Assembly: GCA_019747895.1 (NCBI GenBank)
Contig: JAIEQF010000013.1
Span: 67,104 to 131,103 of the forward strand
Reading direction: 5' to 3'
Source: Chthoniobacterales bacterium
GTDB taxonomy: Bacteria > Verrucomicrobiota > Verrucomicrobiia > Chthoniobacterales > UBA6821
DNA length: 64,000 bases
This document shows, in pieces, positions 24,492 to 64,000 of this stretch. The position numbers and the translations under genes are program-made. The notes beneath the pieces are model-generated. The model saw only the letters and a list, made by a program, of their open reading frames with translations, ran no database searches and was not told where the DNA came from. The stretch's first letter is position 1; each line of letters opens with the position of its first letter.

Positions 24492-24493
24492 TC

Positions 24494-26018: not shown

Positions 26019-26219
26019 ATGATCACTCAACAACCGCCGCCGCATCCTTCCAGTTCTCATTTGGCAGAGGCTTCTTGTGAAGATCTTTCCTTCGATTCTA
26101 TTCCCTATGATGTAGAGCTCATCGCCGCTATCGAAGAGGCTCGGGCTGAGATTAGATGTGGAGAATTTATTACACACGAAGAACTTGAAAAAGAATTTTA
26201 TTCATGGTTTTTCGAATAA
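26019..26219 (+). CDS. Antitoxin, paralogue of 19059-19256
   Basis: AIEEARAEIRCGEFITHEELEKEFYSW. Confidence 0.72.
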   Translation: MITQQPPPHPSSSHLAEASCEDLSFDSIPYDVELIAAIEEARAEIRCGEFITHEELEKEFYSWFFE

Positions 26220-27589: not shown

Positions 27590-28468
27590 ATGAAACAGGA
27601 GCTTATCATTAATCATCGAGCTGTCGGTAATGGACATCCCGCTTATATTATTGCAGAGATTGGGATCAATCATAACGGAAGTGTTGAAATAGCAAAGAGC
27701 CTCATTTCAATTGCAAAAAATTCTGGATGTGATGCAGTCAAGTTTCAGAAACGCACCGTTGATATTGTTTACACGGCAGAAGAATTAGCTAAGCCTCGTG
27801 AAAATCCGTTTGGTGCTACCAATGGTGATTTGAAGCGTGGCTTGGAATTTGGAGTTGAGCAGTACCGTGAGATCGATGAGTTTTGTAAAGAAATAGAGAT
27901 GACGTGGTTTGTTTCGTGCTGGGATGAACCTTCCGTTGATTTTATAGAACAGTTTAAAATGCCTTGTTATAAAATTGCTTCAGCTTCTCTCACTGATGAT
28001 GCCTTGTTGCGATACACGCGGGCTACTGGAAAACCTATTCTGCTTTCAACGGGCATGAGTACTTATAAAGAAATTGATCATGCTGTAGAAATTTTAGGCA
28101 AGCATGATCTTATCTTGATTCATACCTGCAGCACCTATCCTTCCAAATACAACGAACTAAATCTGCGCGTCATTCCTGAGCTGTATAAACGTTATGGCGT
28201 TCCTGTCGGCTATTCAGGCCATGAGACAGGGATTGCTTCTTCGGTAGCGGCGGTGACTCTTGGAGCTTGTCTTATTGAACGTCATATTACACTCGATCGT
28301 GCTATGTGGGGCTCAGACCAAGCCGCTTCCTTGGCTCCCAGTGGACTTTCCCATTTGGTGCGTGATATTCGACTTGTTGAAGAATCGATGGGCGATGGAG
28401 TCAAGATTGTTCAAGAGAGTGAGATTCCTGTCATGAAGAAACTTCGTCGAGTAGGATGTAAGTCATGA
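27590..28468 (+). CDS. NeuB/SpsE-family keto-deoxy-ulosonic acid synthase (no C-terminal SAF/AFP domain)
   Basis: IAEIGINHNG, DAVKFQ, KIASA, STGMS, GYSGHE, IERHITLDR. Confidence 0.9.
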   Translation: MKQELIINHRAVGNGHPAYIIAEIGINHNGSVEIAKSLISIAKNSGCDAVKFQKRTVDIVYTAEELAKPRENPFGATNGDLKRGLEFGVEQYREIDEFCKEIEMTWFVSCWDEPSVDFIEQFKMPCYKIASASLTDDALLRYTRATGKPILLSTGMSTYKEIDHAVEILGKHDLILIHTCSTYPSKYNELNLRVIPELYKRYGVPVGYSGHETGIASSVAAVTLGACLIERHITLDRAMWGSDQAASLAPSGLSHLVRDIRLVEESMGDGVKIVQESEIPVMKKLRRVGCKS

Positions 28469-29160
28469 TTCCAAATAGACCGCTCTCAAAACTCGCTGAT
28501 GGTGATGAAGCGCAAGGAGGCGACGGCGCACAGCGACTGAGTGTACAAGAGCATACAGCCGGCTGGGAGGCCGCTGGATCAAATGCCGAAGGCAGCCCCA
28601 GAGGGGCGAGCCTCGCGGGAGCGAGCGAGTTGCTCCTCGATGGCGCGAGCGCCGGCGCGACACAGCGCTTCGCATCAGCAGTAGAGTTTGGAAAGCGGTC
28701 TAAAATCAAAGCAATCGTTCTCGATATAGATGGAGTCTTAACTGATGGGACTTTTTGGTGGGATCTTAATGGTGGTGAACAAAAACGTTTTAGTTTTCGT
28801 GATGTGATGGGGATTGTGCGAGCAGGACGAAAGGGAATTTTATTTGCACTCATTTCTGGAGAAGAAAATGTCATGGTCGATCGCCTTGCTGCAAAACTGA
28901 ATATTGATTCTGTTTATCAGGGATGTTCTGACAAAGCCTCAGCTCTTCGCTCTTTTGCAAAAGAAAAAAATCTTTCACTCTCAGAAATTTGTTTTATGGG
29001 AGATGACATCAATGATCTTGACGCGATTGAGATTGCAGGCTATTCCGCAGCTCCTGCAAATGCTCATGAAAGCGTCTTGAGTGCGGTCGATTTTGTTGTA
29101 AGAAAATCGGGAGGCGATGGAGCTGTGAGAGAGTTAATTGATTCTTTAGTTGCGATATGA
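28465..29160 (+). CDS. KdsC-like HAD phosphatase with a 75-aa PE1 insert after residue 4
   Basis: LDIDGVLTDG, ISGE, MGDDINDL, GGDGAVRE; ATGA overlap with the neuB-like stop supports the start. Confidence 0.9.
   Translation: MIPNRPLSKLADGDEAQGGDGAQRLSVQEHTAGWEAAGSNAEGSPRGASLAGASELLLDGASAGATQRFASAVEFGKRSKIKAIVLDIDGVLTDGTFWWDLNGGEQKRFSFRDVMGIVRAGRKGILFALISGEENVMVDRLAAKLNIDSVYQGCSDKASALRSFAKEKNLSLSEICFMGDDINDLDAIEIAGYSAAPANAHESVLSAVDFVVRKSGGDGAVRELIDSLVAI
28476..28702. mobile_element. PE1 copy E, long form (227 bp), in frame
   Basis: Ends tagaccgctctcaaaactc / gagtttggaaagcggtcta; carries an extra ~81-nt central module shared with copy H. Confidence 0.93.
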
Positions 29161-31723: not shown

Positions 31724-32559
31724 TGTTGCTTGGTATCATGCAAGGAAGGCTTCTTCCACCAGTAGAAAATCGGATCCAATCTTTTCCAAAAGATCGATGG
31801 GCGGAGGAATTTTCTTTAGCAGCTTTATTAGGGATCCAGACGATTGAATGGATTTATGAAGATTATGGCTCCAAAGAAAATCCTATAGCAACGGATGTTG
31901 GAATTATGCGCCTCAAGGAACTTTCTTCTCAGTACGGAATAAAAGTTCTTTCTCTTTGTGCCGACTATTTTATGGATTATCCGCTCTTGCGTTGCAGTGT
32001 CATCCAGCAACGAGAACGTATTGCCAAATTAGAGTGGCTCCTCGAGAGAGCTCAACAGGCCGCTATCGCTTCCGTTGTTCTGCCTTTTGTTGATCATTCC
32101 AACATCAAAAATGAAGAGGAAATTAAAGAGACCATCTCCTTGCTTCAAGAAGTATTGCCTTTTGCTGAGCGCTATCAGGTAGAGCTTCATTTAGAAACAG
32201 ACTTGGAGCCGCACCTTTTTTCGTCGTTGCTTCATCGCCTTCCTCATCCTCTTTTAAAAGTCAACTATGACTCTGGTAACAGTGCCTCTTTAGGATATTC
32301 CATATCAGAAGAATTCAAAGCTTATGGAGAGCGTATTGGGAGTGTTCATATTAAAGATCGTCTGCGCGGAGGAGGCACAGTTCCATTAGGTCAGGGAGAT
32401 GTTTCTTTTGCTGAGCTTGCAGCCGCTTTGCAACGCATCGATTATCAGCGTCCTCTCATTTTACAAATTGCTCGTGGAGTTTCTGGAAGCGAAGTTGATT
32501 GGGTAAGAGAAAATATAAAAACAGTAAAAACAATTTTCAAAAAAACAGATCATTCATGA
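31723..32559 (+). CDS. Sugar-phosphate isomerase/epimerase (AP-endonuclease-2 TIM barrel)
   Basis: GIMQGRL, LHLETD, NYDSGNS, VHIKDR. Confidence 0.85.
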   Translation: MLLGIMQGRLLPPVENRIQSFPKDRWAEEFSLAALLGIQTIEWIYEDYGSKENPIATDVGIMRLKELSSQYGIKVLSLCADYFMDYPLLRCSVIQQRERIAKLEWLLERAQQAAIASVVLPFVDHSNIKNEEEIKETISLLQEVLPFAERYQVELHLETDLEPHLFSSLLHRLPHPLLKVNYDSGNSASLGYSISEEFKAYGERIGSVHIKDRLRGGGTVPLGQGDVSFAELAAALQRIDYQRPLILQIARGVSGSEVDWVRENIKTVKTIFKKTDHS

Positions 32560-33383
32560 ACCCTCTTTCTTTATTTAGTATAAAAAATAAGATTGCTGTT
32601 ATTACTGGTGGCGCTGGTCTTCTTGGGCGTGAACATGCGCATGCCATAGCGCTTGCTGGTGGAATCCCAGTTATTTTCGATGTGCTCGCTGCTGCTCCTA
32701 TCAAAGTAGCAAAAGCATTAACACAGGAGTGGGGAACTTCTGTTTATGGCTATGAAGTTGATATTACTAACATAGAAGCGATCAAGGAAGTTCAACGGAA
32801 GTTGAGCTCTGAGTTAGGACGTATTGATATTTTAATTAACAATGCTGCTAACAATCCTAAGATGGATGGCGATTCCAAGTCTAACGCGTCGCGATTTGAA
32901 ACATTCTCTTTAGAGGCATGGAATCAAGATTTGGCTGTTGGATTAACAGGTGCTTTTTTATGTTGTCAGGTTTTTGGCGCTGAAATGGCCCATCAAGGTT
33001 CTGGAGTGATTGTTAATATTGCTTCCGATTTAAGTCTAATTTCACCCGATCAACGACTCTATCGAAAGCCCGATCTTCCTGATCAAATGCAACCAGTAAA
33101 GCCAGTGACTTATTCTGTGGTGAAGAGTGGTATCATTGGGCTGACTCGTTATTTGGCAACCTATTGGGCTGATCGCGGTGTTCGTGTGAATGCGCTTTCG
33201 CCAGGCGGTGTTTTTACAGGACAAGATGCAGCCTTCGTCCAACGTCTGACTTCCTTAATTCCATTGGGACGTATGGCTACTCCTACGGAATATCAGGCTG
33301 CCATCATTTTTCTTTGTTCAGAGGCATCGGCATATATGACAGGAAATAATTTAGTGATGGATGGAGGAAGGACATGTTGGTGA
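32556..33383 (+). CDS. SDR oxidoreductase of nonulosonate-type sugar clusters
   Basis: TGGAGLLG, NNAANNP, PVTYSVVKSG, RVNALSPGG. Confidence 0.88.
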   Translation: MNPLSLFSIKNKIAVITGGAGLLGREHAHAIALAGGIPVIFDVLAAAPIKVAKALTQEWGTSVYGYEVDITNIEAIKEVQRKLSSELGRIDILINNAANNPKMDGDSKSNASRFETFSLEAWNQDLAVGLTGAFLCCQVFGAEMAHQGSGVIVNIASDLSLISPDQRLYRKPDLPDQMQPVKPVTYSVVKSGIIGLTRYLATYWADRGVRVNALSPGGVFTGQDAAFVQRLTSLIPLGRMATPTEYQAAIIFLCSEASAYMTGNNLVMDGGRTCW

Positions 33384-36315: not shown

Positions 36316-38706
36316 ATGTTTTCTCACAAAAAAATATCACCAAAAACAAAACTGAGCCTTCTTACGGGCTTGCTCTTTATTGTTGTCATCGGAATTGTAT
36401 GGCTTTTGCAGACTCCATCTCCTGAAGAAGCTTTTGGCGATACAGGAAAATTTTGGGATTTGTTGCGGACGACTTGTGGTGGATGGACTCCAACATTCAT
36501 GCTAGGGCATAGTGCAACTATTTACCACGTAGCGATCATTGATCTTTTCGTTCATTATCTTTTTGTCCCTTTTCAATCTTTCTTAACGTTATTTGTCATC
36601 ACGAAGATTATTGGGCTTGTTTCCCTAGCAGCCAGTGGAGTGACGATGTTCTTTTTTATTCGGCGGTTGACGCGGGATGAGACGCAGGCGGCTGTGGCAG
36701 GATTGGCCTATGTGATGATGCCATCGATCACGGTGGCGATGGGCATTTATGAGCATTTCAGCGTGACGCTTTGTTTTGTTTTTGTCCCTTTGATTTTGCG
36801 AGGGATTTTAGTTTTGTCGGAAGAAGCATCGCCACGAGAAATTGTAGGACTCGGTTTAGCAGCTAGTGCGATTGCGTTGAGTTATACAAAAATCGCCGTC
36901 GTGATTTCGCCAATCCTTTTGTTGTGGACGTTGGAAGTCTTGCGTTTGCAGCCTGCGAATGCTCGTTTGAAAATCATGGGGCATTACGCCGTGAGTGCTG
37001 GTCTGGCACTAGCGCTGGCGCTTCCTTTTTTGTTGCCGGCTTCACGTGAGTTTGGTTTTGCCGCAGGATTTCTTTTTGATCCGCTGGATGGATGGCAGCA
37101 TCATTACGCTTTTAAGTCAGCGCTCCAGTGGATCGATCTCTGGGGTGTTTTCATCAAAGGTTCTGGTCCTAATGTTGAAAGGGATTCTGTGATGTTTGCC
37201 ATTGGGTTGATGCCGATGCTCGGCATTTCTTTTGGGTTGGGTCTTTCTTCTCTTGAAGAGTGGCGCCGCTCTTCGCTCGGACGTTGGTTTTTGATCTTAG
37301 TAGCTTGTTGGTTGCTTTCTATTAATCTGGCTGCTGGTCCTGATGGGGTTCTTTTAGGACATTGGCATCTTTTGAAAGAGAGTGCTCGTGGCATGTTTGA
37401 CTTTGCTATTCCTTGCCTTTGGTTTGCTCTGGCGTGGCTGGTTTGGATGAGTTATCAGACCATTTGTTGTCTTATTGGAGGCAAAGCATGGCGCTCCTGG
37501 TTGTTGTTGGCCGTGTTTTTGGCGACGCCATTTTTTCGCATCGCTGCAGCATTTCCTCTTTTTAACGACATTCGCGCCCCTGAATCTTTTTGGAGTGTTG
37601 GTGGTTTTTGTGTCTTGGCGGCCGCGGTGGGGATGGTCACGGTGGCACTTTTTACAAAAGTGATTTTAAGTCGACTTCGTGTGATCAGCGCCATCGGTAT
37701 TGGGCTTCTTTTTTTATTAGAGCTCTATCCGATTCACTCTGCTTATTGGACGCGAGGGCTTCCTGAGGAACTTTTTTCTGATTACGATCAAGCTCTTGTT
37801 TTTTTAAAAAATGCTCCTTTGCCCGGTCGCGTGCACCCTCTTTGTAGTCGCTATTTTTATTTAACTATTCCTCAGAAGACAGGCCGCTCTCTTAGTACCG
37901 AAGCGCTTCTGCGTCATTTTGAGTTAAAATGGGTTCGACATTTTGAGGCTGCAGGAATGGCTAATATCGATGCGATGAAAAGCTATCTGAACCTTGCTGG
38001 CGTTTCTTATATTTTCATTGATAAAGAAGATCCGCTAACACCGAAGCAGGCGCAAGACGTCTATCGTTCCTTCTTTCCGGTCGTTTTTGAAAATCGTTCG
38101 ATTGCTATCTTAGCCAATGAAGCCTCGCTCTATCCTGCTTTTTTGGCGCGTAACTTTGTTGCGCTCCCTCTGGAAAGCTACCAGCAGGCTCCGATGGCCT
38201 TGCAGTTGGCAAGAATGAATCTCCTTGGAGTAGAGCTTGCGCAAAGCGATCAAAGACAGAGTGGGTTTGCAGGAAGAGCTACTGGAAATAATCAGGTGGA
38301 GCTTCTCCCTCAATACCAAGGCCGCGGAGGTGCTCCTTTTCAACGTGTGGCGTCTGTTGGTAATCGTGCTGATGATTATGGAAAGATGACCTATCGTTTG
38401 CCACCTACAGTTTCAGGATGGCTAACAGTTACTGAGGCCTTTCATCCAGATTGGACCGCAATGATCGATGGGCAGCCAGCTGATATTCATCGTGCTGCTG
38501 CTGCATTGCTTTCTGTCTATGTGCCACTCGGGTCTCAAGAAATTATTTTTAAATTTATTCAACCTGCTTGGTATACGCTTTCATTTTATTTGGGATGCTT
38601 CCTCTGGTTCATGGCGCTGGGAGGATTTATCTTCTTTCGTACTCGCTGGGCGCGTTCTGATTTGAAAACCTGGTGGTTAGGTTCTTATACCACTTCCATT
38701 AAATAA
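36316..38706 (+). CDS. Multi-pass membrane protein, YfhO-like GT-C candidate
   Basis: Many TM segments; C-terminal WLTVTEAFHPDWTAMIDG motif; last residues and stop come from a PE2 end. Confidence 0.65.
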   Translation: MFSHKKISPKTKLSLLTGLLFIVVIGIVWLLQTPSPEEAFGDTGKFWDLLRTTCGGWTPTFMLGHSATIYHVAIIDLFVHYLFVPFQSFLTLFVITKIIGLVSLAASGVTMFFFIRRLTRDETQAAVAGLAYVMMPSITVAMGIYEHFSVTLCFVFVPLILRGILVLSEEASPREIVGLGLAASAIALSYTKIAVVISPILLLWTLEVLRLQPANARLKIMGHYAVSAGLALALALPFLLPASREFGFAAGFLFDPLDGWQHHYAFKSALQWIDLWGVFIKGSGPNVERDSVMFAIGLMPMLGISFGLGLSSLEEWRRSSLGRWFLILVACWLLSINLAAGPDGVLLGHWHLLKESARGMFDFAIPCLWFALAWLVWMSYQTICCLIGGKAWRSWLLLAVFLATPFFRIAAAFPLFNDIRAPESFWSVGGFCVLAAAVGMVTVALFTKVILSRLRVISAIGIGLLFLLELYPIHSAYWTRGLPEELFSDYDQALVFLKNAPLPGRVHPLCSRYFYLTIPQKTGRSLSTEALLRHFELKWVRHFEAAGMANIDAMKSYLNLAGVSYIFIDKEDPLTPKQAQDVYRSFFPVVFENRSIAILANEASLYPAFLARNFVALPLESYQQAPMALQLARMNLLGVELAQSDQRQSGFAGRATGNNQVELLPQYQGRGGAPFQRVASVGNRADDYGKMTYRLPPTVSGWLTVTEAFHPDWTAMIDGQPADIHRAAAALLSVYVPLGSQEIIFKFIQPAWYTLSFYLGCFLWFMALGGFIFFRTRWARSDLKTWWLGSYTTSIK

Positions 38707-38848
38707 TCGGACTATTGTGACTTATTCTTTTGCTCCCTAGCTTCGTTGTCAGAGCTTACGTTATGCTTGCATAGCGCCTCACTCTTCTGACTTGCTAGAA
38801 ACCAAAACTCCTGCGTCCTATAGTCTCATTATTTAATGGAAGTGGTAT
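38687..38848. mobile_element. PE2 copy 2, between two convergent genes
   Basis: Perfect 21-bp terminal inverted repeat ataccacttccattaaataat; same internal motifs as copy 1. Confidence 0.85.
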
Positions 38849-39837
38849 TAGTCCTCAAAATCAAACGGATGATTTTTTAATGCTGGCAACCATTCTTGTA
38901 CCCAAGCAATAACGCTATCAATGCCATCTTCTAATTCAATATTGGGAGACCAATAAAGTTCGCGGTGACTTTTGGTGTTATCTAAGAGATAGGCTGCATC
39001 TTTACCGGGACGATCTTCAACAATGGTCACCGCATTCTCAAAAGTAACATTCATACGATCGCAAATCAAAGCTACAAGATCACTAATTGAAGTGAAGCGA
39101 CTAGTTGAAAGATGATAAGCTTCGCCTGGAGTGCCCTGGCGAGCAGCCTTTAAAGTGCCTGAGACAACGTCATCGACATGAATAAAAGAGCGTACCGCAT
39201 GACCTTTACCATGAAGGGGGATTTTTTTTCCTAACAAAATGGAGAGGATGGTGCGAGGGATGATGCGATGAGTCCGTTGTCCAGGGCCATAAACGTTTGC
39301 TGCCCGAGTAAAGACAACAGGAAAGGAGTCGTTTTTAAAAATAGCGTTGAGGTGCCATTCGCAAGCAGCACGCGATGCGCCATGATGGGTGCTAGGATTA
39401 AAAGATTGGGTTTCTACGACAGGGTCTTGGCATGTTCCATAAACTTCAGGAGTAGAAACGTGAACATATTTTTTAAGAAAGGAAAAATGTTTTAATCGAT
39501 CATGAAGCTTGGTGTTGCTAAAAAAGTTGGTTTGGTACCACTCTTCGATTCCTTTGTTGTTTTTTGATGCTCTGCGCTGTGCAGCAAAATTAATCACATA
39601 ATCTGGTTTGTAAGCCCGAATCACGTTAGCTATTTCGTCAGTGTGCTGATTGAGGTCGAATTGTTCAAAAGAAAAACCGCGACCCGCTCCATGTTTCCAA
39701 TGATAAGGAGTGAAGGGAATGCTTGGTTCTGCCGAGCGGCTAATGCCTAAGACCCTAGATTCTTGGGTGAGAGCGTGATGAACAAAGTGGCTTCCTGAAA
39801 AAGAATTGCTTCCAATAACAACGATTTTTTCACTCAT
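38848..39837 (-). CDS. NDP-sugar 4,6-dehydratase-like extended SDR
   Basis: GSNSFSG, NFAAQ, STPEVYG, RAANVYGPGQ, DRPGKDAAY; the catalytic YxxxK appears as HGASR, so activity is uncertain. Confidence 0.75.
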   Translation of the reverse strand: MSEKIVVIGSNSFSGSHFVHHALTQESRVLGISRSAEPSIPFTPYHWKHGAGRGFSFEQFDLNQHTDEIANVIRAYKPDYVINFAAQRRASKNNKGIEEWYQTNFFSNTKLHDRLKHFSFLKKYVHVSTPEVYGTCQDPVVETQSFNPSTHHGASRAACEWHLNAIFKNDSFPVVFTRAANVYGPGQRTHRIIPRTILSILLGKKIPLHGKGHAVRSFIHVDDVVSGTLKAARQGTPGEAYHLSTSRFTSISDLVALICDRMNVTFENAVTIVEDRPGKDAAYLLDNTKSHRELYWSPNIELEDGIDSVIAWVQEWLPALKNHPFDFED

Positions 39838-55277: not shown

Positions 55278-56366
55278 CTAATTCCCAACTTCTCCCATCA
55301 TCGTTACGAGAGGAAGGAAGAGCGCAATGATCAGCGTTCCCACGGTCAGCGCGAGAAGGAGGATGGTGGCAGGCTCGAGCAGTGTCAGGAGGCGTTCCAA
55401 GTGAGTTTGTAATTCTTCCTCATAAAAATCGGCGAGGTTGAGGAACATTTTTGGAAGCTGTCCCGTTGCTTCTCCAACTTCCATCATATTCACGACCATC
55501 GGAGGAAAAAAAGCATGCTGGCGCAAAGAGGCTGCCATCGCATTGCCATGCTGAATACTATCATGAACTTCTTGAAAGAGCTGATCTACGGAATGAGATC
55601 CGGTCGTCTCTTTTCCAAGCTCTAGGGCTTGTAGCAGCGGGATGCCATGAGTCAGGAGTGTTCCCACTGTTCTTGTGAAGCGAGCCAAGATATTTTTTTG
55701 AAAGAGGTGTTGAAAAAACGGAGTTCGCAAGAGGACCAAATCCCGCCACAAACGGCCCAACGTTGTTTTAGAAAAAAAAGAAATTCCTCCCAGCAGCATT
55801 ACTCCTCCAAAAATAAGAAGGTGAGGGTGGTTGATGATGTTGCGACTTAAATTTAAAATCAGTTGGGTCAAGGCTGGGAGCGCTTTGTCCGAAAACATTT
55901 CTGAAAAGATGGTTTCAAATTTTGGAACTACAAAAAAAAGTAACAATCCTATGATCATGAGCGCTGCTATCAGCACCATCATCGGATAAAGCAGAATGGA
56001 AAATAATTTCTGGTGAAGTTTTTGGCGCTTGTCTTGCAATGCTGCTAGTTGTTGCAGGACATCTCCCAAAATTCCTCCATGCTCGCCGGCTTTTATCATG
56101 CTCCGGTAGTCATTTGAAAAGAGTGTTGGATGTTCGCTCAACGCACTGCTGAAGCTCTTGCCTTCGTGGAGAGAGGCGATGAGATGAGAAATGATTTTTT
56201 TGAAATGACTTTTAGGTTGCTGCTCTTCTAACATCAGGAGGCTTGGCAACAGTGGCATGCCAGCGTGGAGTAAGGTGGCGAGCTGATGGGTAAAAAGAGA
56301 AAGCGTCTTAGAAGAAATCTTTTTTTTAGGGAAATACTTTTGAAAAAAAGAAGAATGCATTAGCAA
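55278..56366 (-). CDS. Type II secretion / type IV pilus platform protein (GspF/PilC family)
   Basis: FTHQLATLLHAGMPL, AGEHGG, YP, GEATGQL, LLEP, ALFLP. Confidence 0.92.
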   Translation of the reverse strand: MLMHSSFFQKYFPKKKISSKTLSLFTHQLATLLHAGMPLLPSLLMLEEQQPKSHFKKIISHLIASLHEGKSFSSALSEHPTLFSNDYRSMIKAGEHGGILGDVLQQLAALQDKRQKLHQKLFSILLYPMMVLIAALMIIGLLLFFVVPKFETIFSEMFSDKALPALTQLILNLSRNIINHPHLLIFGGVMLLGGISFFSKTTLGRLWRDLVLLRTPFFQHLFQKNILARFTRTVGTLLTHGIPLLQALELGKETTGSHSVDQLFQEVHDSIQHGNAMAASLRQHAFFPPMVVNMMEVGEATGQLPKMFLNLADFYEEELQTHLERLLTLLEPATILLLALTVGTLIIALFLPLVTMMGEVGN

Positions 56367-56379
56367 TTCTCATACTATT

Positions 56380-57414
56380 TTAAGCCTCCAAGCTCAAGCC
56401 TTGAGTTTTTGGTTTCATTAATTGCAGAGTGAGTTTTTTGCACTCTTGGACCAGGTGGTAGACAATAATAGCTACAAAAAAGGCAAGAAGACTTACGGTG
56501 ATTCGTCCATAGGCTACATGAAAATTCGAATCGGGAGCTGGGATCATAAAAACAGAAAAGGAACACATCGCTATGATGCCACGGAAAAGCGCTGTATGAT
56601 TTGAAAAATAACAAGCAAGCCATTCTAGTAATCCAAATAGCCCTGCCAATCCCAGGAGATAAATAGTGATGTCATTTGCAAAAGCTACGATACCTACGAG
56701 AAAAGCCGTTGCTACAAATGCTCCCAAAAAATAACCAATCATTTGTTGAAGATAGAGGTTCACGGATTTTCCAATTTCTAAAAAAGTAATTGTAGAAATG
56801 CTTGCCATGACCAGGCGTGTTTCTTGATCTGTTTCAATAGTCATTTCTAACATAATGGCGATGGATACCGTAATTCCGATACTAACGATGCTGCCCAAAT
56901 CTATCTTCGGATAAGTTTGAGGTGGTTGATGTTTTTTAATGAGTGCTGCAGCAAGGTAAGTCATCACAATGGGAACAATTGTTTGGACCCAGAGTTTGAG
57001 TGCCTGAATCAGTAGGTCGCTTCCATAAAAGGAGTGAGTAGCCGTTGCGTAGAGTGCTAAAAAGTATGCTCCAAAAGCATAGGCGCTTCCAGGTCCTGAA
57101 TGCTTAAAAAAAAGAGCGTATCCAAATGCAGCAATAAAACCTGCCAGAGGAAAGGAAATCCAAGGGGCTTGGAAAAAAGCGATCAAGACAGCCATGCTTG
57201 TGAGGATGCCGAGTGAGAGTGCACCAAATCGAGCTAGAACATAACTCAGTGTGGGTCTTGGCAAGAGAGAGAGTGTTGCAGCCAAACTCAGTGACATGTA
57301 GCAATTGGGAATTCTAAAACATTCCAAGACTAAAACAGTTCCTGCTGTTCCAAGAGCGATGCAGAGTGCTGAAGAAGTTTTCTCGTCAAATTGGAGAGGA
57401 GAAGAATTACTCAT
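56380..57414 (-). CDS. FUSC/MdtO-like inner-membrane component
   Basis: Multi-TM; ATG 57414 overlaps the HlyD stop; position after ytcA-like and HlyD genes. Confidence 0.6.
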   Translation of the reverse strand: MSNSSPLQFDEKTSSALCIALGTAGTVLVLECFRIPNCYMSLSLAATLSLLPRPTLSYVLARFGALSLGILTSMAVLIAFFQAPWISFPLAGFIAAFGYALFFKHSGPGSAYAFGAYFLALYATATHSFYGSDLLIQALKLWVQTIVPIVMTYLAAALIKKHQPPQTYPKIDLGSIVSIGITVSIAIMLEMTIETDQETRLVMASISTITFLEIGKSVNLYLQQMIGYFLGAFVATAFLVGIVAFANDITIYLLGLAGLFGLLEWLACYFSNHTALFRGIIAMCSFSVFMIPAPDSNFHVAYGRITVSLLAFFVAIIVYHLVQECKKLTLQLMKPKTQGLSLEA

Positions 57415-58591
57415 TTTCTTGGATCGATTTAAAATCGTAAAGCGGCGGAACAAAAGGAATCGACTCCGGTTCTTGAAGTAATTTTAACTCCGTGTTGTAA
57501 GGAGTGGTGCGTGTGTCAATGATCACGGCCGCTTTACCTCCTGAACGAAATTCAGGTTGTTCTTTTGATTGAAGGACGATGCGGACAGGAAAGCGTGTTG
57601 CCAATTGGATGAAATCAAAGGTTGGAGGGACTTCAGATAAAACGCCTTCGCCAGCAGCTTGATTTTTTGAGGCTCCGACATAAGGAATAACGCCACGTGC
57701 TATTCCTTGAACAATGCCATCAACAGAAGTTAAGCGTCGTCCCATGATAAAAACCTTAGCGCTTTGCCCCCGCTTGACGCGGTGAATATCGATTTCTCGA
57801 AAATTGGCCATAACGTACCAAATGCTCGAGTCGACAATGGTGAAGAGTTGTTCGCCAGTGGCAGCGTAGGAACCTGGTGCAATTTTAAGATTCGTGATGT
57901 AGCCCTCACACGATGCAAAAACTTTGCAATAAGAGACTCGAAGTTCTGCGTTCCTCAGTTCTGCTTCCGCTTCTTCAATGCGTGTATTTCTTCCACCATA
58001 TTCACCATATAAATTTTCAGCACGAACGACAGCAGCCTCTGCTTCTTTGACTAAGGCTGCACTACTTTCAGCCTCGGATTGAGATTGTTGAACTTTATCA
58101 GCAGAGGCAAAGTTACCTTCGAGAAGTGGCTTGAGACGCTCGTAGTGGGCCATGGCGTAGGCGGCTTTTGCTTGACGGTCGCGAAGTGTTGCTTTGGCAG
58201 CTTTGATCTGCTCTTCGAGTGCGGTGACTTCAAGTCGGACAAGGTTGAGTTTTGCGCGGGCGCGAGCGGCTTCTGCCTCGTAAGGACGAGCATCGAGTTT
58301 GAGGATCAGATCGCCACGTTTGACTTTTTGATTATCAACAACGTGGATTTCAGTAATGGTGCCGCCTACTTGAGCTGCCACACCTACAGTGTTAGCCAAA
58401 ACCTCCGCATCATCGGTGCGAGGACAGAGTTCAATATTATGCCAGACCAAATACGCGCCCAAGAAGCCTGCGAGCAGAATGAAAATGCGAATGGGGTTTA
58501 CGAGCCATTGGAGCGAGCTGTCAGATTGCTCTCTATTCTTAGGAAGAGGATCAGGAATAGCGAGAGATGTTTTTTTTTCTTCAGAAGTCAT
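57407..58591 (-). CDS. HlyD/MdtN-family membrane fusion protein
   Basis: PRTDDAEV, VGGTITEIHVVDNQ.VKRG, A.CEGYITN, QLATRFPVRI; start ATG 58591. Confidence 0.9.
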   Translation of the reverse strand: MTSEEKKTSLAIPDPLPKNREQSDSSLQWLVNPIRIFILLAGFLGAYLVWHNIELCPRTDDAEVLANTVGVAAQVGGTITEIHVVDNQKVKRGDLILKLDARPYEAEAARARAKLNLVRLEVTALEEQIKAAKATLRDRQAKAAYAMAHYERLKPLLEGNFASADKVQQSQSEAESSAALVKEAEAAVVRAENLYGEYGGRNTRIEEAEAELRNAELRVSYCKVFASCEGYITNLKIAPGSYAATGEQLFTIVDSSIWYVMANFREIDIHRVKRGQSAKVFIMGRRLTSVDGIVQGIARGVIPYVGASKNQAAGEGVLSEVPPTFDFIQLATRFPVRIVLQSKEQPEFRSGGKAAVIIDTRTTPYNTELKLLQEPESIPFVPPLYDFKSIQENE

Positions 58592-58827
58592 CGGGCTGAA
58601 AAATAAAACATCCAAGTCCAAAGTGTAATGACGGCAAAAAATGCAGGAATCATTAAACCAGGAGGTTGGAAAATACGAGAGAGATGGAGACGTGATGCCA
58701 CGATGGCCGTTCCCCAGGTCCCAATGATGCCGACGAGCATGCACATTAGCCAGCCTGGAAAATAGGCTCCTCCAATATTAATGAGAGGGTCGTGACTTAA
58801 CTTGATGATTGCTAAATTTTCCAGCAT
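58588..58827 (-). CDS. YtcA-like small membrane protein
   Basis: GAYFPGWL motif; immediately upstream of the MdtN-like gene. Confidence 0.75.
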   Translation of the reverse strand: MLENLAIIKLSHDPLINIGGAYFPGWLMCMLVGIIGTWGTAIVASRLHLSRIFQPPGLMIPAFFAVITLWTWMFYFSAR

Positions 58828-58845
58828 AATAAGTGGAATCTTTTT

Positions 58846-60354
58846 ATGAGATACCAGAGCTGGCTAACTATATATCTTTTTTTCTTTTATGGAAGTTCTC
58901 TTCTTGTTGCCGTAGAAAGTTCTTTTCAAGAAAAGCATGCTGCTACTGCTGGACCAGAGATAGGACAACAGCCAGCTGCCTATATTAAAGCTGCTGCTGC
59001 GCCAGTTCCAGCAGTGCCTCAGTTTTCTTCTCAAAAAAGTTATAACCTGGGAAACTTAATTGATCTTGCGCTGAATAATAATCCTTCTACCCGCGCAGCA
59101 TGGAGTCAGGCAAAAGCTGCTTCAGCCTCCGTAGGAGAGGCGCGTTCTCTTTACTATCCGTGGGTGAAAGCTGGTTTTACTGGAGGGTACGACCAGAATT
59201 ATCTTCCTCTTACTACAGGTCTTAATGTTTATAACCGGACTCAGGCCACGGTCTTTTTTAGCTTGGAATATATTTTGCTCGATTTTGGGCGAAGGGATGC
59301 TGATGTGGCACGAACGATTGCTACCTTCAATGCGCTTGGTCTAACGTACCAGCGTAAGTTGCAAGAAATTATTTTTGCCGTCCAAAAAGTTTATTTTGCG
59401 CACGAGGCTGCTCTTTGGAAAAAAAAGGCAGCAGAAACGAACCTCGCTTTTTTATCAACCCTAGCTGACATGATTGCCCGAGAAAATGTTACTGGTTTGT
59501 CAGCAGGACCAGAGCTGCTCAAAGCACGAAAACAAGTTCTTGAAGCCCAGTACGAGGTGGAGTCCGCTAGGGCGAAGGTCAAAAATACATTAGGAGAGCT
59601 CTGCGTTGCCACAGGGCTTCCAGCTAATACGCCTTTGCAAATCACAACGACAGAGCGTCCTGTTTCGACCAAAAAACTACGAGGAGATGCCAATGAATTA
59701 GTGCGTCGGGCGCTTGTCTTTCGTCCTGATATTGCCGCTCGTGTAGCTGAGCTGAAAGCCAGTAAAGAAGCCACGCGACGAGCCATTGCTGATTTTTTTC
59801 CTGTTATTAAACTGCATTCAGACTATATCAACAGCACTTTTGGATATACCGCGACTGATGGGACCTTGAATGGAACATATGGTGGAGGTGGGATTTCTGG
59901 GGTTAATGGTTTTGTCATGGCGAGCTGGGATATTTTTGATGGTTTGGAGCGCATCTTTAAAGTTCGGCAGCGACAAGAAGAAGATAAAGTTGCTGAACGA
60001 AACTTAGAGCAGACAAAGTTGAATACAACACGAGATGTTTGGACTTCTTACAATGATAGTTTGACAGCAGAGCAAAGGGTTAATTTTGCTGAAGGATATG
60101 TGGCCTCTGCTAAAGAAACATTTGATGCCGTCAAAACGGCCGTAGAGACAGGTTTAACGAATGTTACTGATTTTGCTGAGTCAGGGAGTAATGTTGCTAA
60201 TGCTGATTCAGAATTGGCTAGTGCTGTCGCGGACTATTCGACAGCATTGGCGCTGCTTGCATTTTCAGTGGGAACTACGACTCCTGCGCCTTCTCGTGTT
60301 CCTGAAGACTTGGGAAAGCCGGGAGAGTTGAAGTTAAGAGCGTTGTCGTTTTAA
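58846..60354 (+). CDS. TolC-family outer-membrane efflux protein
   Basis: ALNNNPS, LLDFG, RPDI, WDIFDG motifs. Confidence 0.9.
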   Translation: MRYQSWLTIYLFFFYGSSLLVAVESSFQEKHAATAGPEIGQQPAAYIKAAAAPVPAVPQFSSQKSYNLGNLIDLALNNNPSTRAAWSQAKAASASVGEARSLYYPWVKAGFTGGYDQNYLPLTTGLNVYNRTQATVFFSLEYILLDFGRRDADVARTIATFNALGLTYQRKLQEIIFAVQKVYFAHEAALWKKKAAETNLAFLSTLADMIARENVTGLSAGPELLKARKQVLEAQYEVESARAKVKNTLGELCVATGLPANTPLQITTTERPVSTKKLRGDANELVRRALVFRPDIAARVAELKASKEATRRAIADFFPVIKLHSDYINSTFGYTATDGTLNGTYGGGGISGVNGFVMASWDIFDGLERIFKVRQRQEEDKVAERNLEQTKLNTTRDVWTSYNDSLTAEQRVNFAEGYVASAKETFDAVKTAVETGLTNVTDFAESGSNVANADSELASAVADYSTALALLAFSVGTTTPAPSRVPEDLGKPGELKLRALSF

Positions 60355-60368
60355 AATGACTAAAAAAA

Positions 60369-60507
60369 ATTAACCGCAAAGAACGCAAAGAGCGCAAAAA
60401 AAGACAGGGAAAGAGCAGTGGAAATTTTTATTCTTTGCGTTCTCTGCGTTCTTTGCGGTTAATTTTCTTCTTCTTTTCTTTTGGTTTTTGTGTTCTTTGT
60501 GGTTAAT
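60369..60507. repeat. Inverted 9-mer REP-like pair
   Basis: attaaccgcaaagaacgcaaagagcgcaaaa versus ttctttgcgttctctgcgttctttgcggttaat. Confidence 0.85.
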
Positions 60508-60518
60508 CCAAATTTTTC

Positions 60519-62939
60519 ATGAAAAACCTAACTCGCTTCTTAATCACACTTGCTTTGGTTGCCGTTGCTGCTCGAGGAGGTGATCAAAAACTTCCCATTG
60601 CACAACAAAATGCGCTTGATGAAAACAGTGTTCTCTTTGTGCCGCAAGGCTACGACGCGAAGACCAATCCTTCGTTTGCCTTTGAACAACCGCTTAAGCC
60701 ACTTGGGCCTGTTCCTAAACATTGGAAACTCTTTCCTCGTTTTTCATCAGATGTAAAAACAACAAAGGTGATTCTTGATGTTCCCTTCCAAGCCTCTCTC
60801 TATGGGACAGGGGAGGTGACTGGTCCGCTCTTGCGTAATGGAAAGAAAATCACGCTCTGGAATACTGATAGCTCAACTTACGCTGTTGCTCATGGCAAGC
60901 GCCTTTATCAAACGCATCCGTGGGTGTTGGGAGTGCGTCTTGATGGAACCGCTTTTGGTATTATTTTTGACACAACGTGGAAAGCAAAATTGGAGACAAC
61001 GTCACATCAGATCGTTTTAATGAGTGAAGGTCCTCCATGTCGCGTGGTTATCATCGAGGGAAAAAATCCACAAGTCGTCGTTCGCAAGCTGGCGGATCTG
61101 ACCGGAAAAATGCCACTTCCGCCAAAATGGGCGATTGGCTTTCAACAATGCCGCTATTCTTATTATCCCGATGCAAAGGTGCGTGAGATTGCCGATCAAT
61201 ATCGTGCTCGTCATCTGCCGTGTGATGTCATCTGGCTCGACATTGATTACATGGATGGGTATCGCAGTTTTACGTTTGATCCAAAGCGTTTTCCTGATCC
61301 TAAGGCCACGAATGACTATTTGCACGAGCATGGCTTTCACTCTGTTTGGATTATTGATCCTGGAATCAAGATTGATCCTAACTATTTTGTCTATCAACAG
61401 GGGACAAACCTGCTTTCAAATTCTACTGAGGCTGTGAATAACAGCGTCGCGCCGGTGCTCGCGTCATCGAGTAGCAACTCGCTCGCTCCCGCGAGTCTCG
61501 CCCTTACGGGCTGCCTAACGGCAGTCGATCCAGCGGCTGCCACGCCGCATGTATGTAGAGATACACTCAGCCGCTGTGCGCCGTCGGCTCCTTCTTCTTC
61601 ACTACCCTCAGCGAATTTTAAAGCAGGTTTGCGAGCAGGGGGGGTGAATACTGCTTGGGTGCTGACTAAAAATGGTCAACCGTTTCATGGCACTGTCTGG
61701 CCGGGAGATTCTGTCTTTCCTGATTTTACGATGCCTGCCGTGCGGCATTGGTGGTCGGAACTCTATCATGATTTCTTAGCTCAAGGAGCTGATGGCATTT
61801 GGAACGATATGAATGAACCTTCGGTTTTTAATGGTCCTCGTCAGACGATGCCTGAAAATAATTGGCATCGCGGAGGAGGGGGGCTTCCTTCTGGTATTCA
61901 TCGGATGTATCACAATGTTTATGGAATGCTGATGGCATCAGCAACGCGGGCTGGTATCTTGCACGAGCGTCCTGACAAACGTCCGTTTCTTTTGTCACGC
62001 TCCAATTATCTCGGGGGCCAGCGCTATGCGACCACATGGACTGGAGACAATAGTTCCGGGATGCATTATTTGAAAATGTCGATTCCGATGGGGCTCAATC
62101 TTGGTCTTTCGGGATCGCCTTTTAATGGGGTTGATCTTGGTGGTTACGCGGGGAGAGAAAACCCTGATCTTTTTGGAAAATGGATTGTGATGTCAGCCTT
62201 TTTTCCTTTCTCGCGAGCTCACACAGCCACCTACAATCCTCCGAGAGAGCCATGGGTTTTTGGACCCAAAATTGAAACCGTCACTCGTGTCGCTTTGGAA
62301 CGGCGATATCGCATGTTGCCTTACCTCTACACGCTCTTCCACAAAGCCTCGCAATACGGTGATCCGATCATGCAGCCAGTTTTCTTTGCTGATCCCAAAA
62401 ACTTGTTGCTTCGTTCTGAAGATCAAGCTTTTCTTTTGGGGACAGATCTCTTGGTGGTGCCGCGTTGGGCTCGCTTTCCACGGTTGCCGGGAGGTATTTG
62501 GCGTGATGTTTCTCTTCTTCCCGGAAAACGGGAGGAAGATGGATATCAGCCTCGCATCAAGATCCGCGGTGGTGCCATTGTGCCACTCGGTCGGGTGATT
62601 CAAAACACCAACGAAGAATCACTGAAGCCGTTGACGTTGCTTGTTTGTCTCAATGAAAAAGGGGAAGCGCGTGGAAGTCTCTACGAAGACGCTGGCGAAG
62701 GCTTCGGTTATAAAACGGGAGACTATGCGCTGACGCATTATCACGCCATTCGCAAAGGAAAGACCGTAATGGTCACCATGGAAAAGCGAGAAGGGAATCG
62801 CGCTATTCCAGATCGTCCCGTCCATGTGCAGTTGGTCGTCAATGGTCCAGACTTAGAAAAGAGCGGTTTTGAATCAGGAGGGGTTGTCTTAAAGCTGCCT
62901 CTCAACCTCTATGAAAAAATAGCAGAAAAAACAAAATAA
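60519..62939 (+). CDS. GH31 alpha-glucosidase with a 75-aa PE1 insert
   Basis: IWLDIDYM, IIDPG, GIWNDMNEP (nucleophile), TWTGDN, RYRMLPYLY. Confidence 0.93.
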   Translation: MKNLTRFLITLALVAVAARGGDQKLPIAQQNALDENSVLFVPQGYDAKTNPSFAFEQPLKPLGPVPKHWKLFPRFSSDVKTTKVILDVPFQASLYGTGEVTGPLLRNGKKITLWNTDSSTYAVAHGKRLYQTHPWVLGVRLDGTAFGIIFDTTWKAKLETTSHQIVLMSEGPPCRVVIIEGKNPQVVVRKLADLTGKMPLPPKWAIGFQQCRYSYYPDAKVREIADQYRARHLPCDVIWLDIDYMDGYRSFTFDPKRFPDPKATNDYLHEHGFHSVWIIDPGIKIDPNYFVYQQGTNLLSNSTEAVNNSVAPVLASSSSNSLAPASLALTGCLTAVDPAAATPHVCRDTLSRCAPSAPSSSLPSANFKAGLRAGGVNTAWVLTKNGQPFHGTVWPGDSVFPDFTMPAVRHWWSELYHDFLAQGADGIWNDMNEPSVFNGPRQTMPENNWHRGGGGLPSGIHRMYHNVYGMLMASATRAGILHERPDKRPFLLSRSNYLGGQRYATTWTGDNSSGMHYLKMSIPMGLNLGLSGSPFNGVDLGGYAGRENPDLFGKWIVMSAFFPFSRAHTATYNPPREPWVFGPKIETVTRVALERRYRMLPYLYTLFHKASQYGDPIMQPVFFADPKNLLLRSEDQAFLLGTDLLVVPRWARFPRLPGGIWRDVSLLPGKREEDGYQPRIKIRGGAIVPLGRVIQNTNEESLKPLTLLVCLNEKGEARGSLYEDAGEGFGYKTGDYALTHYHAIRKGKTVMVTMEKREGNRAIPDRPVHVQLVVNGPDLEKSGFESGGVVLKLPLNLYEKIAEKTK
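61405..61631. mobile_element. PE1 copy H, long form (227 bp), in frame in GH31
   Basis: Ends caaacctgctttcaaattc / gaattttaaagcaggtttg (18/19 complementary); central module shared with copy E. Confidence 0.94.
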
Positions 62940-62982
62940 ATTCTTGCCACTCTTTCAATTCACTGTTACTTTTTTCCGCCTC

Positions 62983-63192
62983 ATGCCAAAAGCAATCGCA
63001 CGTAGTAAAACAAAGAAGTCTGTTGCAAAACGATTCAAAATCACAGCGACAGGTAAAGTCATTCGCTCCAAAGCCGGACGCCGCCACTTGCTGGAATGTA
63101 AGAATTCCAAGTTAAAACGCAATATGGGCAAACGCGCTGTGGTGGAAGCTTGTGATGTGAATCATATCAAAGCAAACCTCCCTTGGGGATAA
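62983..63192 (+). CDS. rpmI: 50S ribosomal protein L35
   Basis: KTKKSVAKRFKITATGK...GRRHLLECK; precedes rplT. Confidence 0.95.
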   Translation: MPKAIARSKTKKSVAKRFKITATGKVIRSKAGRRHLLECKNSKLKRNMGKRAVVEACDVNHIKANLPWG

Positions 63193-63332
63193 TTTCCTCA
63201 TAAATTCTACTGATGCAGCGAGGAACGGCGTCATGTCGGTGCTCGCGTCATCGAGTATTAATTGTACACTCAGCCACTGTGCGCGGCCGTTACTTGTTCC
63301 TTATCTGCCTTAGCGAATTTCTAAGGGAATTA
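63190..63332. mobile_element. PE1 copy I, intergenic, starting at the rpmI stop codon
   Basis: Ends taatttcctcataaattc / gaatttctaagggaatta; core cggtgctcgcgtcatcgagtattaattgtacactcagcc. Confidence 0.9.
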
Positions 63333-63520
63333 TTATGTATTGATAGATTTTGCGTTGGCAAGGAGCTCAGTAACTGATAAATTATAACTTCAATTTTTAA
63401 AACGATTCATGGAACTGGGTATTTGTACAAATACTCTAACCGGGCGGGTGAGTTCCTGAATCATTAACTAACAAACAGCCTGCCCGAGGAGACTCTTTGC
63501 GAAAGCAAAGAGAATTACAT

Positions 63521-63889
63521 ATGCCTAGAGCCACTAACTCTCCCGCGAGTCGCGCACGTCGCAAGCGGGTCATTGATGAAGCCGCTGGTTATCGCGGTCG
63601 CCGTTCCAAACTTTTCCGCTATGCAAAAGATGCGCGGATGAAAGCCAAGTATTGGGCTTATCGTGATCGTAAGACACGGAAGCGCAATGTTCGTTCACTC
63701 TGGATCGCTCGTCTTAATGCGGCCGTTCGTGCAGAATCACTCACCTACAGTCGTTTTATGGAGGGAATGAAAGCAGCAGGGATCACTCTTGATCGCAAAG
63801 TGCTTTCTGATCTTGCCATCAACGATGCGCAGGCTTTTTCTGTTATTGTAGCTCAAGCAAAAGCTGCGCTTGCTGCTAAGAATAAATAG
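63521..63889 (+). CDS. rplT: 50S ribosomal protein L20
   Basis: MPRATNSPASRARRK...GYRGRRS...YAYRDR-like WAYRDRK, SLWIARLNAA. Confidence 0.97.
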   Translation: MPRATNSPASRARRKRVIDEAAGYRGRRSKLFRYAKDARMKAKYWAYRDRKTRKRNVRSLWIARLNAAVRAESLTYSRFMEGMKAAGITLDRKVLSDLAINDAQAFSVIVAQAKAALAAKNK

Positions 63890-63911
63890 ATACAAGCATT
63901 AAAAAGAATTT

Positions 63912-63962
63912 TATCACAAAGAACACAAATGCCGCTTTGAGCGGCTTTGTGATCTTTGTGGT
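63912..63962 (+). terminator. Hairpin after rplT embedded in a 9-mer-type inverted pair
   Basis: gccgct-ttg-agcggc followed by tttgt, flanked by tcacaaagaacacaaa / tttgtgatctttgtg. Confidence 0.5.
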
Positions 63963-64000
63963 GAATTCGTTTCTCTATGAACATCGAGATTGATCAACTT

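Follow-up and report, generated by a model that had tools for sequence, protein, structure and literature searches.

Two copies of the palindromic repeat PE1 in a 64,000-nucleotide (nt) stretch of DNA from a Chthoniobacterales bacterium (GenBank assembly GCA_019747895.1, contig JAIEQF010000013.1, positions 67,104 to 131,103; hereafter, the window) carry an additional 81-nt block at their centre. Our analysis indicates that this block, referred to below as the module, is probably a separate small mobile DNA element that was inserted into the PE1 centre, and that it is non-autonomous and moved in trans. In the mechanism we propose, the module, which is non-coding and consists of four different hairpins in one orientation, would have entered the PE1 centre and so given rise to the "long PE1" form; it would not move alone, and an enzyme supplied in trans would recognize the hairpins together with their conserved loops and linker.

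Long PE1 copies are composites of a PE1 repeat and an 81-nt module

Copy H spans positions 61405-61631 on the plus strand, within an 806-amino-acid (aa) open reading frame (ORF; 60519-62939), and copy E spans 28476-28702 on the minus strand, within the ORF at 28465-29160. An earlier reading of the letters alone (hereafter, the sequence-only reading) had described both copies as 227 bp long with an extra central block, and we verified the coordinates and a block of exactly 81 nt in each. In a joint alignment of H and E with seven short PE1 copies (starting at 1904, 2779, 17355, 22967, 48451, 49914, and 63191), long PE1 resolved into a PE1 repeat of ~144 nt plus the GC-rich block, which replaces the ~6-8-nt centre of short PE1 between ..CGAGTA and ATACACTC. 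More specifically, copy H consists of (i) a left arm (61405..61473, +) with an invariant CTACT motif, delimited by alignment with the seven short copies and a match to a left-arm hidden Markov model (HMM); (ii) the module (61474..61554, +; GCAAC...GTAT, 67% G+C, cmsearch score of 96.2 bits); and (iii) a right arm (61555..61631, +), delimited by alignment with short PE1 copies and an arm HMM. In copy E, the module occupies 28553..28633 (-; 92.8 bits) and carries a variant of the fourth hairpin (GGCC / TCCCA / GCCGGC).

The two copies are 78% identical over the full 227 nt, and their 81-nt blocks are 83% identical. The first 22 nt of the module are the same in H and E and occur at no other site in the window, the chance expectation from 100 shuffles being 0. 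The complete composite H is predicted to fold as a long hairpin (z = -6.4). That the module is open in both orientations used, as had been pointed out, is true but unremarkable: 3 of 6 frames are open in H and 5 of 6 in E, inside the shuffle range for an 81-nt sequence of the same composition. Likewise, freedom from stop codons in all six frames was dropped as a special property, as it holds for the consensus but for ~10% of shuffles too, and H has only three open frames.

The module recurs in many sequence contexts, inside and outside PE1

We scanned one genome per species with the exact 22-mer of the module, which returned 16 loci, all of them holding a complete module. These belong to four genome bins, each a different species of Verrucomicrobia: one from Lac Pavin, one from Lake Tanganyika ("K_DeepCast"), and two labelled "uncultured Chthoniobacter." A metagenome scan with a non-overlapping module 20-mer, CAGTCGATCCRGCGGCTGCC, returned 79 loci (collected loci carry the prefix L below), about half of which were unrelated high-GC coding matches; the scan yielded ~40 further module copies, mostly from lake metagenomes. 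By means of an nhmmer profile and a cmsearch covariance model, we counted 51-52 distinct module instances in the window and the collected loci, to which a contig syntenic with the window, L096, adds three more. Viral contigs contained no match to a 30-nt module pattern. The module consensus, GCAACTCGCTCGCTCCCGCGAGGCTCGCCCCTGCGGGGCTGCCTTCGGCAGTCGATCCGGCGGCTGCCACGCCGCACGTAT, has a G+C content of 74%, versus 44% for the window and ~53% for the PE1 arms.

In the sampled loci, the four hairpins always occurred together, in one order and orientation, with two exceptions: L057:135-204, described below, and L003:4928, a fragment resembling hairpin 1 without the rest of the module. The flanks of the module fall into at least eight context classes; the module occupies four different sites in PE1 and is present in five or more repeat families that are unrelated to one another. 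Within PE1, the module is found at the centre (H, E, L007/L062, L022, L028, L044, and L081), at right-arm site 1 (following ..TTCAT; L015, L051, L005, and L002), at right-arm site 2 (following ..CATCAGCGT; L096 and L010), which lies 6-8 nt from site 1, and at the left end (L057 and L089), and its orientation relative to PE1 is constant. Outside PE1, it occupies the centre of "CACAAAGAAC" palindromes (also given as "CAAAGAAC" palindromes), two inverted-repeat families resembling miniature transposable elements with inverted repeats (MITEs), namely, a 168-nt inverted-repeat element and a relative of that element, two further recurrent flank families, and several one-off sites, one of which is the loop of a hairpin resembling a terminator (L077). 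Thus, the search for the module alone that the sequence-only reading had recommended recovered complete copies outside PE1 in genome bins and lake metagenomes, and the suggestion of a second structured element nested in PE1 is supported by these copies, by the several positions within PE1, and by the empty sites available for comparison.

To define the ends of the module, we set occupied sites against close relatives of the same host repeat that are free of the module (26 paralogous comparisons). In each of the eight context classes, the occupied site was longer by a net 81 nt. The 5' neighbour of the module was T (A at the PE1 centre) and the 3' neighbour was G or T, and bases further upstream of the 5' end varied among copies. 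The consensus has no terminal inverted repeats: its 5' end reads GCAACTCGC, and its 3' end, when reverse-complemented, gives ATACGTGCG, which does not match. Nor did the 26 comparisons reveal a clear target-site duplication, as no flank was repeated beyond a possible single T, and the orthologous pairs agreed.

Two of the empty references lie in the window. The 168-nt inverted-repeat element at 38684..38851 (+) is module-free, with flanks 93-96% identical to the occupied copies in L085, L036, L059, and L029; this element carries the module at ten or more other loci, at a site that falls in an internal loop of its predicted fold. The short PE1 in mutL (49914..50055, +), which at 88-90% identity is the closest relative of the H arms, was used to represent the empty state at the central and right-arm positions. 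Hairpin loops as a general rule of targeting were considered and rejected, predicted pairing being mixed at the four PE1 sites.

Covariation supports four hairpins in the module

The module contains four hairpins, here positioned in copy H: hairpin 1 (61477..61496, +; ACTCGC / TCGCTCCC / GCGAGT), the pairs of which are 99% kept in 52 distinct copies; hairpin 2 (61500..61511, +; GCCC / TTAC / GGGC) and hairpin 3 (61512..61523, +; TGCC / TAAC / GGCA), both with variable loops; and hairpin 4 (61531..61551, +; CA-GCGGC / TGCCAC / GCCGC-A-TG). Hairpin 1 begins 3-5 nt from the 5' end of the module, and hairpin 4 stops 3 nt before the 3' end. Across species, the GTCGATCC linker hardly varies, and neither do the loops of hairpins 1 and 4.

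To assess covariation, a model-guided alignment of the 52 distinct module sequences was compared with 500 shuffles and with controls in which the pairing partners were slid. In the alignment, 95.9% of cells were paired and 6 pairs were changed on both sides; none of the 500 shuffles reached the observed values on four of five covariation measures, and 2 did so on the fifth. Pairing in the slid-partner controls was only 27-59%. As the alignment had been fitted to the structure, we therefore re-parsed the hairpins by hand. The fourth pair of hairpin 2 changes from C-G to U-A in 3 copies (in two contexts) and to G-C in 2 copies, and the outer R-Y pair of hairpin 4 is A-U in 19 and G-C in 17 copies, with three A.C intermediates. 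Also in hairpin 4, L002 has a G-C to A-U change, and E and L008 share a common shifted-bulge variant. The loop of hairpin 3 varies (TTC, TAAC, TGAC, TGGC, TTT, and others) while its stem is kept, the stem in L011 being one base shorter on each strand; in a diverged copy (L088:164-245), hairpins 3 and 4 are preserved with different bases. Length is buffered as well, with hairpins 2 and 3 measuring 12 + 12 nt or 13 + 11 nt and both forms totaling 81 nt. The kept stems and differing loops noticed between H and E (GCCC-TTAC-GGGC versus GCCCC-TCT-GGGGC, and TGCC-TAAC-GGCA versus TGCC-TTC-GGCA) are both real, compensatory changes keep the stems across the 52 sequences, and a lack of covariation, named beforehand as an outcome that would count against the idea, is contradicted by values beyond those of all 500 shuffles on four of the five measures.

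The evidence for the structure is covariation and not folding energy. Folded on its own, as RNA or DNA and on both strands, the module was only weakly better than shuffles (z of -0.7 to -2.0), and folding energy was dropped as structural evidence since shuffled GC-rich sequence folds nearly as well. Read on the minus strand, the variable loops are GAA, GCA, GTA, GTAA, and GCAA; loops of the GNA/GNRA type are unusually stable hairpin loops. The covariance models of Rfam 15 gave no match at gathering score in the window, and at E values up to 10 the region 61380-61660 gave only a chance isrD match in the right arm of PE1.

Several collected copies depart from this architecture. L057:135-204 is a perfect palindrome with a 14-bp stem (TGTAACTCGCTCGC-ACCC-GCGAGCGAGTTACA) that is derived from the 5' end of the module and occupies the module's place in "CAAAGAAC" palindromes; it resembles a footprint, or what a deletion combined with snap-back would leave. 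Rearrangements between the CTCGC direct repeats of the module comprise a 15-nt duplication in L003:3485-3582 and 13-16-nt deletions, with loss of hairpin 1, in L023:4013-4080, L029:3897-3966, and L077:3463-3530. In L022:1480-1523, after PE1 and the module, the contig end runs on as a stretch of the module in reverse complement (gatcgactgccgttaggc), which is probably an assembly fold-back at the repeat.

Probable repeated insertion of the module and recent movement of composites

In a tree of PE1 arms, the arms of long copies do not group together. Those of H have as their nearest relatives the short copy at 49914 and L051 (identity of 0.90 each), the latter with an empty PE1 centre and the module in its right arm, and those of L007 are closest to the short copy at 17355 (0.93). 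Among PE1 copies that are 87-92% identical, the module sits at the centre (H), at site 1 (L015 and L051), or at site 2 (L096), or is absent (the copy at 49914); L096 and the latter have a pairwise identity of 0.87, and the H arms are 0.82-0.90 identical to the others. Furthermore, the H variant of the module (GCGAGT, with TTAC and TAAC loops) is found nearly unchanged at the left end of PE1 in L057. The scattered arms of long copies, the varying position of the module, and the recurrence of the H variant argue for insertion of the module into PE1 on more than one occasion. Precise loss of the module, or conversion between PE1 copies, keeps a residual probability as an alternative to repeated insertion.

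Contig L096 is syntenic with positions 50800-63880 of the window at ~90-96% nucleotide identity (about 92%). At the site of copy H, within a glycoside hydrolase gene of family GH31, L096 has 13 nt (GTGCAGAAAATTT) versus ~244 nt in the window. Conversely, L096 carries a clean 228-nt (76-codon) PE1-plus-module composite at a site that is empty in the window (51963..51964, +); this composite sits inside a called NUDIX-domain gene, corresponding to the window ORF at 51566-52186 (NUDIX domain by Pfam). A short PE1 in the rpmI-rplT spacer is common to both. Because the GH31 and NUDIX sites differ between the window and L096, the composites move as units through the ends of PE1 itself, and these comparisons of related sequences indicate that both the module and the PE1-plus-module composite have moved recently. 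Our search for loci with orthologues of the H or E host sites found only L050 and L096, and none of the GH31 orthologues compared had a short PE1 at the H site.

The sole stretch that cannot be aligned between these syntenic relatives is 52179-55109 of the window versus 1752-4371 of L096. On the window side, it contains 621-aa and 144-aa ORFs without a Pfam match and a repeat pair of 96% identity, and on the L096 side different unannotated genes and a module-bearing 168-nt element.

PE1 copies lie in frame within conserved genes

The host of copy H is a GH31 alpha-glucosidase of 806 aa (60519..62939, +; PDB 5djw, E = 8e-269). Its residues 297-372, which derive from H, are unmatched in 5djw and absent from the closest orthologue (P0001, on L096; 729 aa, 94% aa identity), which lacks the whole insert, including an extra in-frame stretch between PE1 and the conserved GH31 sequence (61632..61654, +). 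Three further orthologues with 77-86% identity (P0002, P0004, and P0007) have shorter inserts exactly at the H site (alignment columns 311-395), and these remnants encode PE1 termini (NLFS..NENFK.G.., NLFS-NENFKVG.., and NLLSNSTEAVT..). The history of the site is therefore a longer one, with either several insertions at one place or an old insertion followed by deletions. A protein search with the 75-aa peptide encoded by H gave one weak match only, and so affords no view of other host proteins. An exact look-up of the complete GH31 protein of the window found no identical entry.

Copy E lies in a gene for a KdsC-like HAD phosphatase (28465..29160, +; Pfam HAD match). Homology to KdsC structures begins only near residue 76, and E is located between codon 4 and that point. 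The start codon at 28465 shares bases with the upstream stop codon (ATGA), and no other in-frame start occurs after PE1 and before the conserved DxD motif; we infer from this that translation runs through E as well, with E oriented oppositely to H. The module is thus in sense orientation to its host gene in H and antisense in E, and other copies occur both inside and outside ORFs. In genic PE1, the module would be translated as 27 extra residues rich in Ala, Ser, Pro, and Gly, and it may be tolerated in genes because its length is a multiple of three and the insert that it enters is already tolerated.

The short PE1 copies, of about 140-144 nt, are at 1904-2047, 2779-2922, 17355-17498, 22967-23110, 48451-48590, 49914-50055, and 63191-63330. 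According to Pfam matches, most of them are in frame inside conserved genes (GT2, a cyclase, ffh, an unknown 591-aa ORF, and mutL), and the copy in ffh splits the GTPase domain. Eight of the nine PE1 copies in the window share one orientation. Elsewhere in the window, a ParE-family toxin ORF (26204-26503; Pfam E = 2.5e-17) lies within a sugar-nucleotide/sialic-acid-type biosynthesis cluster, a short-chain dehydrogenase is matched in two stretches (32499-33383), and a DegT-type aminotransferase match runs ~70 residues over the profile (24383-25987); the latter two irregularities may be in-frame inserts of repeats other than PE1.

Proposed mobilization of the module and alternative explanations

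As to how the module moves, a single-stranded-DNA route via an HUH-type enzyme, such as those of IS200/IS605, REP/RAYT, or IS91-like elements, may be involved; we hold this tentatively, at somewhat less than even odds, because the ends are asymmetric, no duplication is seen, and the PE1 host shows a replication-strand bias. Across all loci, 20 of 25 PE1 copies have their plus strand on the G-rich strand (p = 0.004), while relative to genes both orientations occur, and this combination points to a replication-linked single-strand process for PE1. For the module itself, the plus strand is on the G-rich strand in 23 of the 31 loci of at least 3 kb.

Several observations weigh against the module being a mobile element moved in this manner. 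The strand bias of the module is mostly that of PE1-hosted copies (9:1), the ratio in other contexts (14:7) not being significant, and G.T versus A.C mismatches, counted after removal of alignment artefacts (6 versus 12), do not significantly indicate an active strand. Pfam scans, which covered 44 of the 51 long ORFs in the window, detected no transposase domain; a split module flanking an ORF did not appear in ~300 kb of related loci, and the sampled loci contained no autonomous copy. The 5' flank conserves only a T and not a 4-5-nt target of the IS200/IS605 type, the hairpins at the two ends are unlike (CTCGC/TCGCTCCC/GCGAG versus GCGGC/TGCCAC/GCCGC), and in the consensus none of the four stems is flanked by a GTAG or CGTC tag or its complement. 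In the predicted folds of the host repeats, the insertion sites are not unpaired in every case. In the 26 comparisons, the junction bases differ from the empty references at 1-4 positions (TC to TT, CTC to GTT, and, in the 168-nt element, ATTC versus GGT followed by G), so the ends may be 1-2 nt wider than drawn, the insertion imprecise, or the references not true pre-insertion sequences. Finally, both collection scans required an exact module word, which biases the sampled copies toward conserved ones. The REP/IS200-IS605-type label proposed in the sequence-only reading thus fits in part: the hairpins and the lack of inverted repeats and duplications agree with it, whereas the missing tag, the missing 4-5-nt target, the unlike end hairpins, and the lack of an HUH/Y1 gene among the ORFs scanned do not, and we treat the label as a lead rather than a result.

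A more active role for the module is conceivable, namely, that of a cis-acting mobilization cassette, or parasite of parasites, which targets and re-activates other miniature repeats. The hint comes from the ~13 kb common to the window and the 92%-identical L096, in which both differing PE1 insertions are composites and the single shared PE1 is short, and from the 168-nt elements, two of which bear modules in L096 while the window copy is empty. We consider this reading unlikely; if true, module-bearing PE1 copies and 168-nt composites would be the currently transposing forms, including into essential genes.

Compensatory changes in the stems could also be expected if the module were under selection for a function, either as a structured RNA or as DNA bound by a protein (for instance, at the GCGAG-N-CTCGC palindrome); it would then spread mainly by hitch-hiking in mobile repeats and be retained for a benefit to the cell or to those repeats. 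The near-invariant loops and linker agree with this, as do two symmetric changes in L035 that preserve the palindrome (GTGAG-A-CTCAC), the GNA/GNRA-type loops of the minus strand, and the higher identity of the module than of the arms in composites (0.90 versus 0.83). The latter excess is, however, inflated by the collection of copies through exact words, and for this reason we dropped the claim that the module is more conserved than its host arms. Conserved ends, loops, and linker are equally expected of an element recognized by a transposase; moreover, relaxing the Rfam search to E = 10 still yielded no match to the module, the sequence as read shows no evident promoter or terminator features, and the occurrence of the module in both orientations relative to host genes, in and out of ORFs, fits no single transcript-level role. 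As independent insertion at four or more PE1 positions would still require a mobility mechanism, we judge a purely functional role to be improbable, about on a par with the cassette. Spread without a dedicated transposase, through recombination or template switching such as PE1 gene conversion or slippage at hairpins, seems less probable again. It would account for the altered bases beside the insert, and conversion between PE1 copies could produce the polyphyly of long copies on the arm tree; the deletions in L023, L029, and L077, the duplication in L003, and the palindromized end at L057:135-204 show that slippage or template switching does occur within the module. Yet conversion needs flanking homology, and the module has unrelated flanks in its eight or more contexts, the same two ends to the base in every one of them, and a position that varies within near-identical PE1 copies.

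The two remaining possibilities have little in their favor. The sequence-only reading had also entertained that the module is a relic of an autonomous full-length PE1 ancestor, the short copies being internal-deletion derivatives, and the centre of the palindrome is indeed the place for a transposase gene in the parent of a MITE. However, the module occurs without PE1 in many contexts as well as at the left end and in the right arm of PE1, has no coding capacity and no similarity to the PE1 arms, and differs from PE1 in G+C content (0.67-0.74 versus ~0.53). The arms of long copies are nested among short ones, their closest relatives being short copies or copies with the module elsewhere, and the longer PE1 versions with an ORF that such a parent would predict did not turn up in the sampled loci; we therefore hold this origin to be very improbable. 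Scarcely any weight attaches to the notion that H and E are one recent duplication whose stem and loop pattern arose by chance. Just two copies are visible within the window, but these are 78% identical overall, each set of arms has closer relatives elsewhere, ~50 further distinct copies exist in other genomes, and on four of the five measures none of the 500 shuffles matches the covariation, which together exclude the duplication with random changes that had been raised as a possible refutation.

Comparison with known elements

We return to the module as a non-autonomous mobile element. Miniature elements derived from IS200/IS605 (PATEs) have neither terminal inverted repeats nor target duplications, carry asymmetric subterminal hairpins, and move by an HUH single-strand mechanism. 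The module resembles them in its lack of inverted repeats and duplication, the subterminal hairpins at both ends, and its fixed orientation, and its tendency toward one replication strand (23:8) is mostly that of PE1-hosted copies; unlike PATEs, it has four hairpins rather than two, its left and right ends are unrelated in sequence, the 5' target is only a T, and no TnpA gene was present among the 44 window ORFs scanned. Rolling-circle elements (IS91/ISCR and Helitron-like) also have no inverted repeats or duplications, a hairpin near the 3' end, and a fixed neighbouring nucleotide. All of these features are shared by the module, with its hairpin a few bases from the 3' end, but its termini do not resemble the conserved ends of such elements and no Rep-type gene was seen. 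With classical MITEs, the module shares its small size, non-coding nature, and many dispersed copies, but not the terminal inverted repeats and target duplication.

IS1397 and ISKpn1, which insert in the loops of REP/BIME units, are insertion sequences of full size that encode a transposase, have inverted repeats, and duplicate their target. Like them, the module repeatedly lands inside other repeats, including the apex of palindromes, and so produces nested repeats; unlike them, it is an 81-nt non-coding sequence and its sites are not all loops. REP, BIME, and REPIN sequences are short GC-rich imperfect hairpins with a GTAG or CGTC tag that are moved by RAYTs, and REPs also act as insertion targets for other mobile elements (PMC3733652). 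The module likewise consists of short GC-rich hairpins and is clustered, high in copy number, and occasionally inside genes, but its four differing hairpins form one 81-nt unit in one orientation, whereas REP clusters consist of a single hairpin in alternating inverted orientation. As for the host repeat, Rickettsia palindromic elements (RPEs) are palindromic repeats found in frame in conserved genes without disrupting them (PMC10969869, PMC3733652). PE1 and its composites are similar, being palindromic, ~100-230 nt long, and in frame in ffh, mutL, and genes for GH31, KdsC-like, GT2, cyclase, and (in L096) NUDIX-domain proteins. Since their host phylum is freshwater Verrucomicrobia, the likeness would be one of analogy and not of sequence membership, and the nested second element and the movement of the composite as a unit are absent from the description of RPEs in PMC10969869 and PMC3733652.

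Other small repeats in the window

A second repeat family consists of inverted arms of 9-nt units (CGCAAAGAA / CACAAAGAA, ending in ..AATTAACC or ..ATAGCC) and is found at 669-726/1169-1221, 14923-14969, 41724-41780/41862-41944, 43385-43435/43504-43555, 47146-47216/47280-47330, 60354-60408/60423-60507, and 63900-63970. The arms enclose stretches between genes and, at 669-1221, one entire small gene; elsewhere, the centre of this family holds the 81-nt module. There are also two families of ~160-170-nt elements with terminal inverted repeats of ~32 nt (38684-38851 and 23146-23306; 54654-54822 and 55087-55255), the pair at 54654 and 55087 being 96% identical. Ends of these two families abut in L096:4100-4150, which suggests that nesting of small repeats is common in this lineage. 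Runs of a CTGTAACCT / CTATAACCT unit stand just upstream of genes (158-196, 8741-8779, 16824-16862, and 51529-51567), an inverted pair of GTAACGAGTAACGGGTAA-type units lies at 6259-6300/6388-6429, and similar "TAGGCTGTAGGC" runs adjoin module-bearing repeats in other loci (e.g., L003 and L010).

Implications

Our findings describe three layers of small mobile DNA in one lineage, that is, a hairpin element within a palindromic element within conserved genes, and the layered outcome would be translated into proteins such as the GH31 glucosidase and the NUDIX-domain protein of a relative. For the annotation of these genomes, this explains odd low-complexity inserts and N-terminal extensions in conserved proteins, and it extends the Rickettsia-type phenomenon of repeats inside proteins to a free-living phylum. 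The module has sharp ends, many contexts, and recent activity, yet lacks the usual marks of a miniature transposon; it belongs among the small non-autonomous repeats, with a mobilization mechanism that is possibly unusual, and may serve as a handle for finding an unrecognized or unusual mobilizing enzyme in the poorly sampled freshwater Verrucomicrobia.

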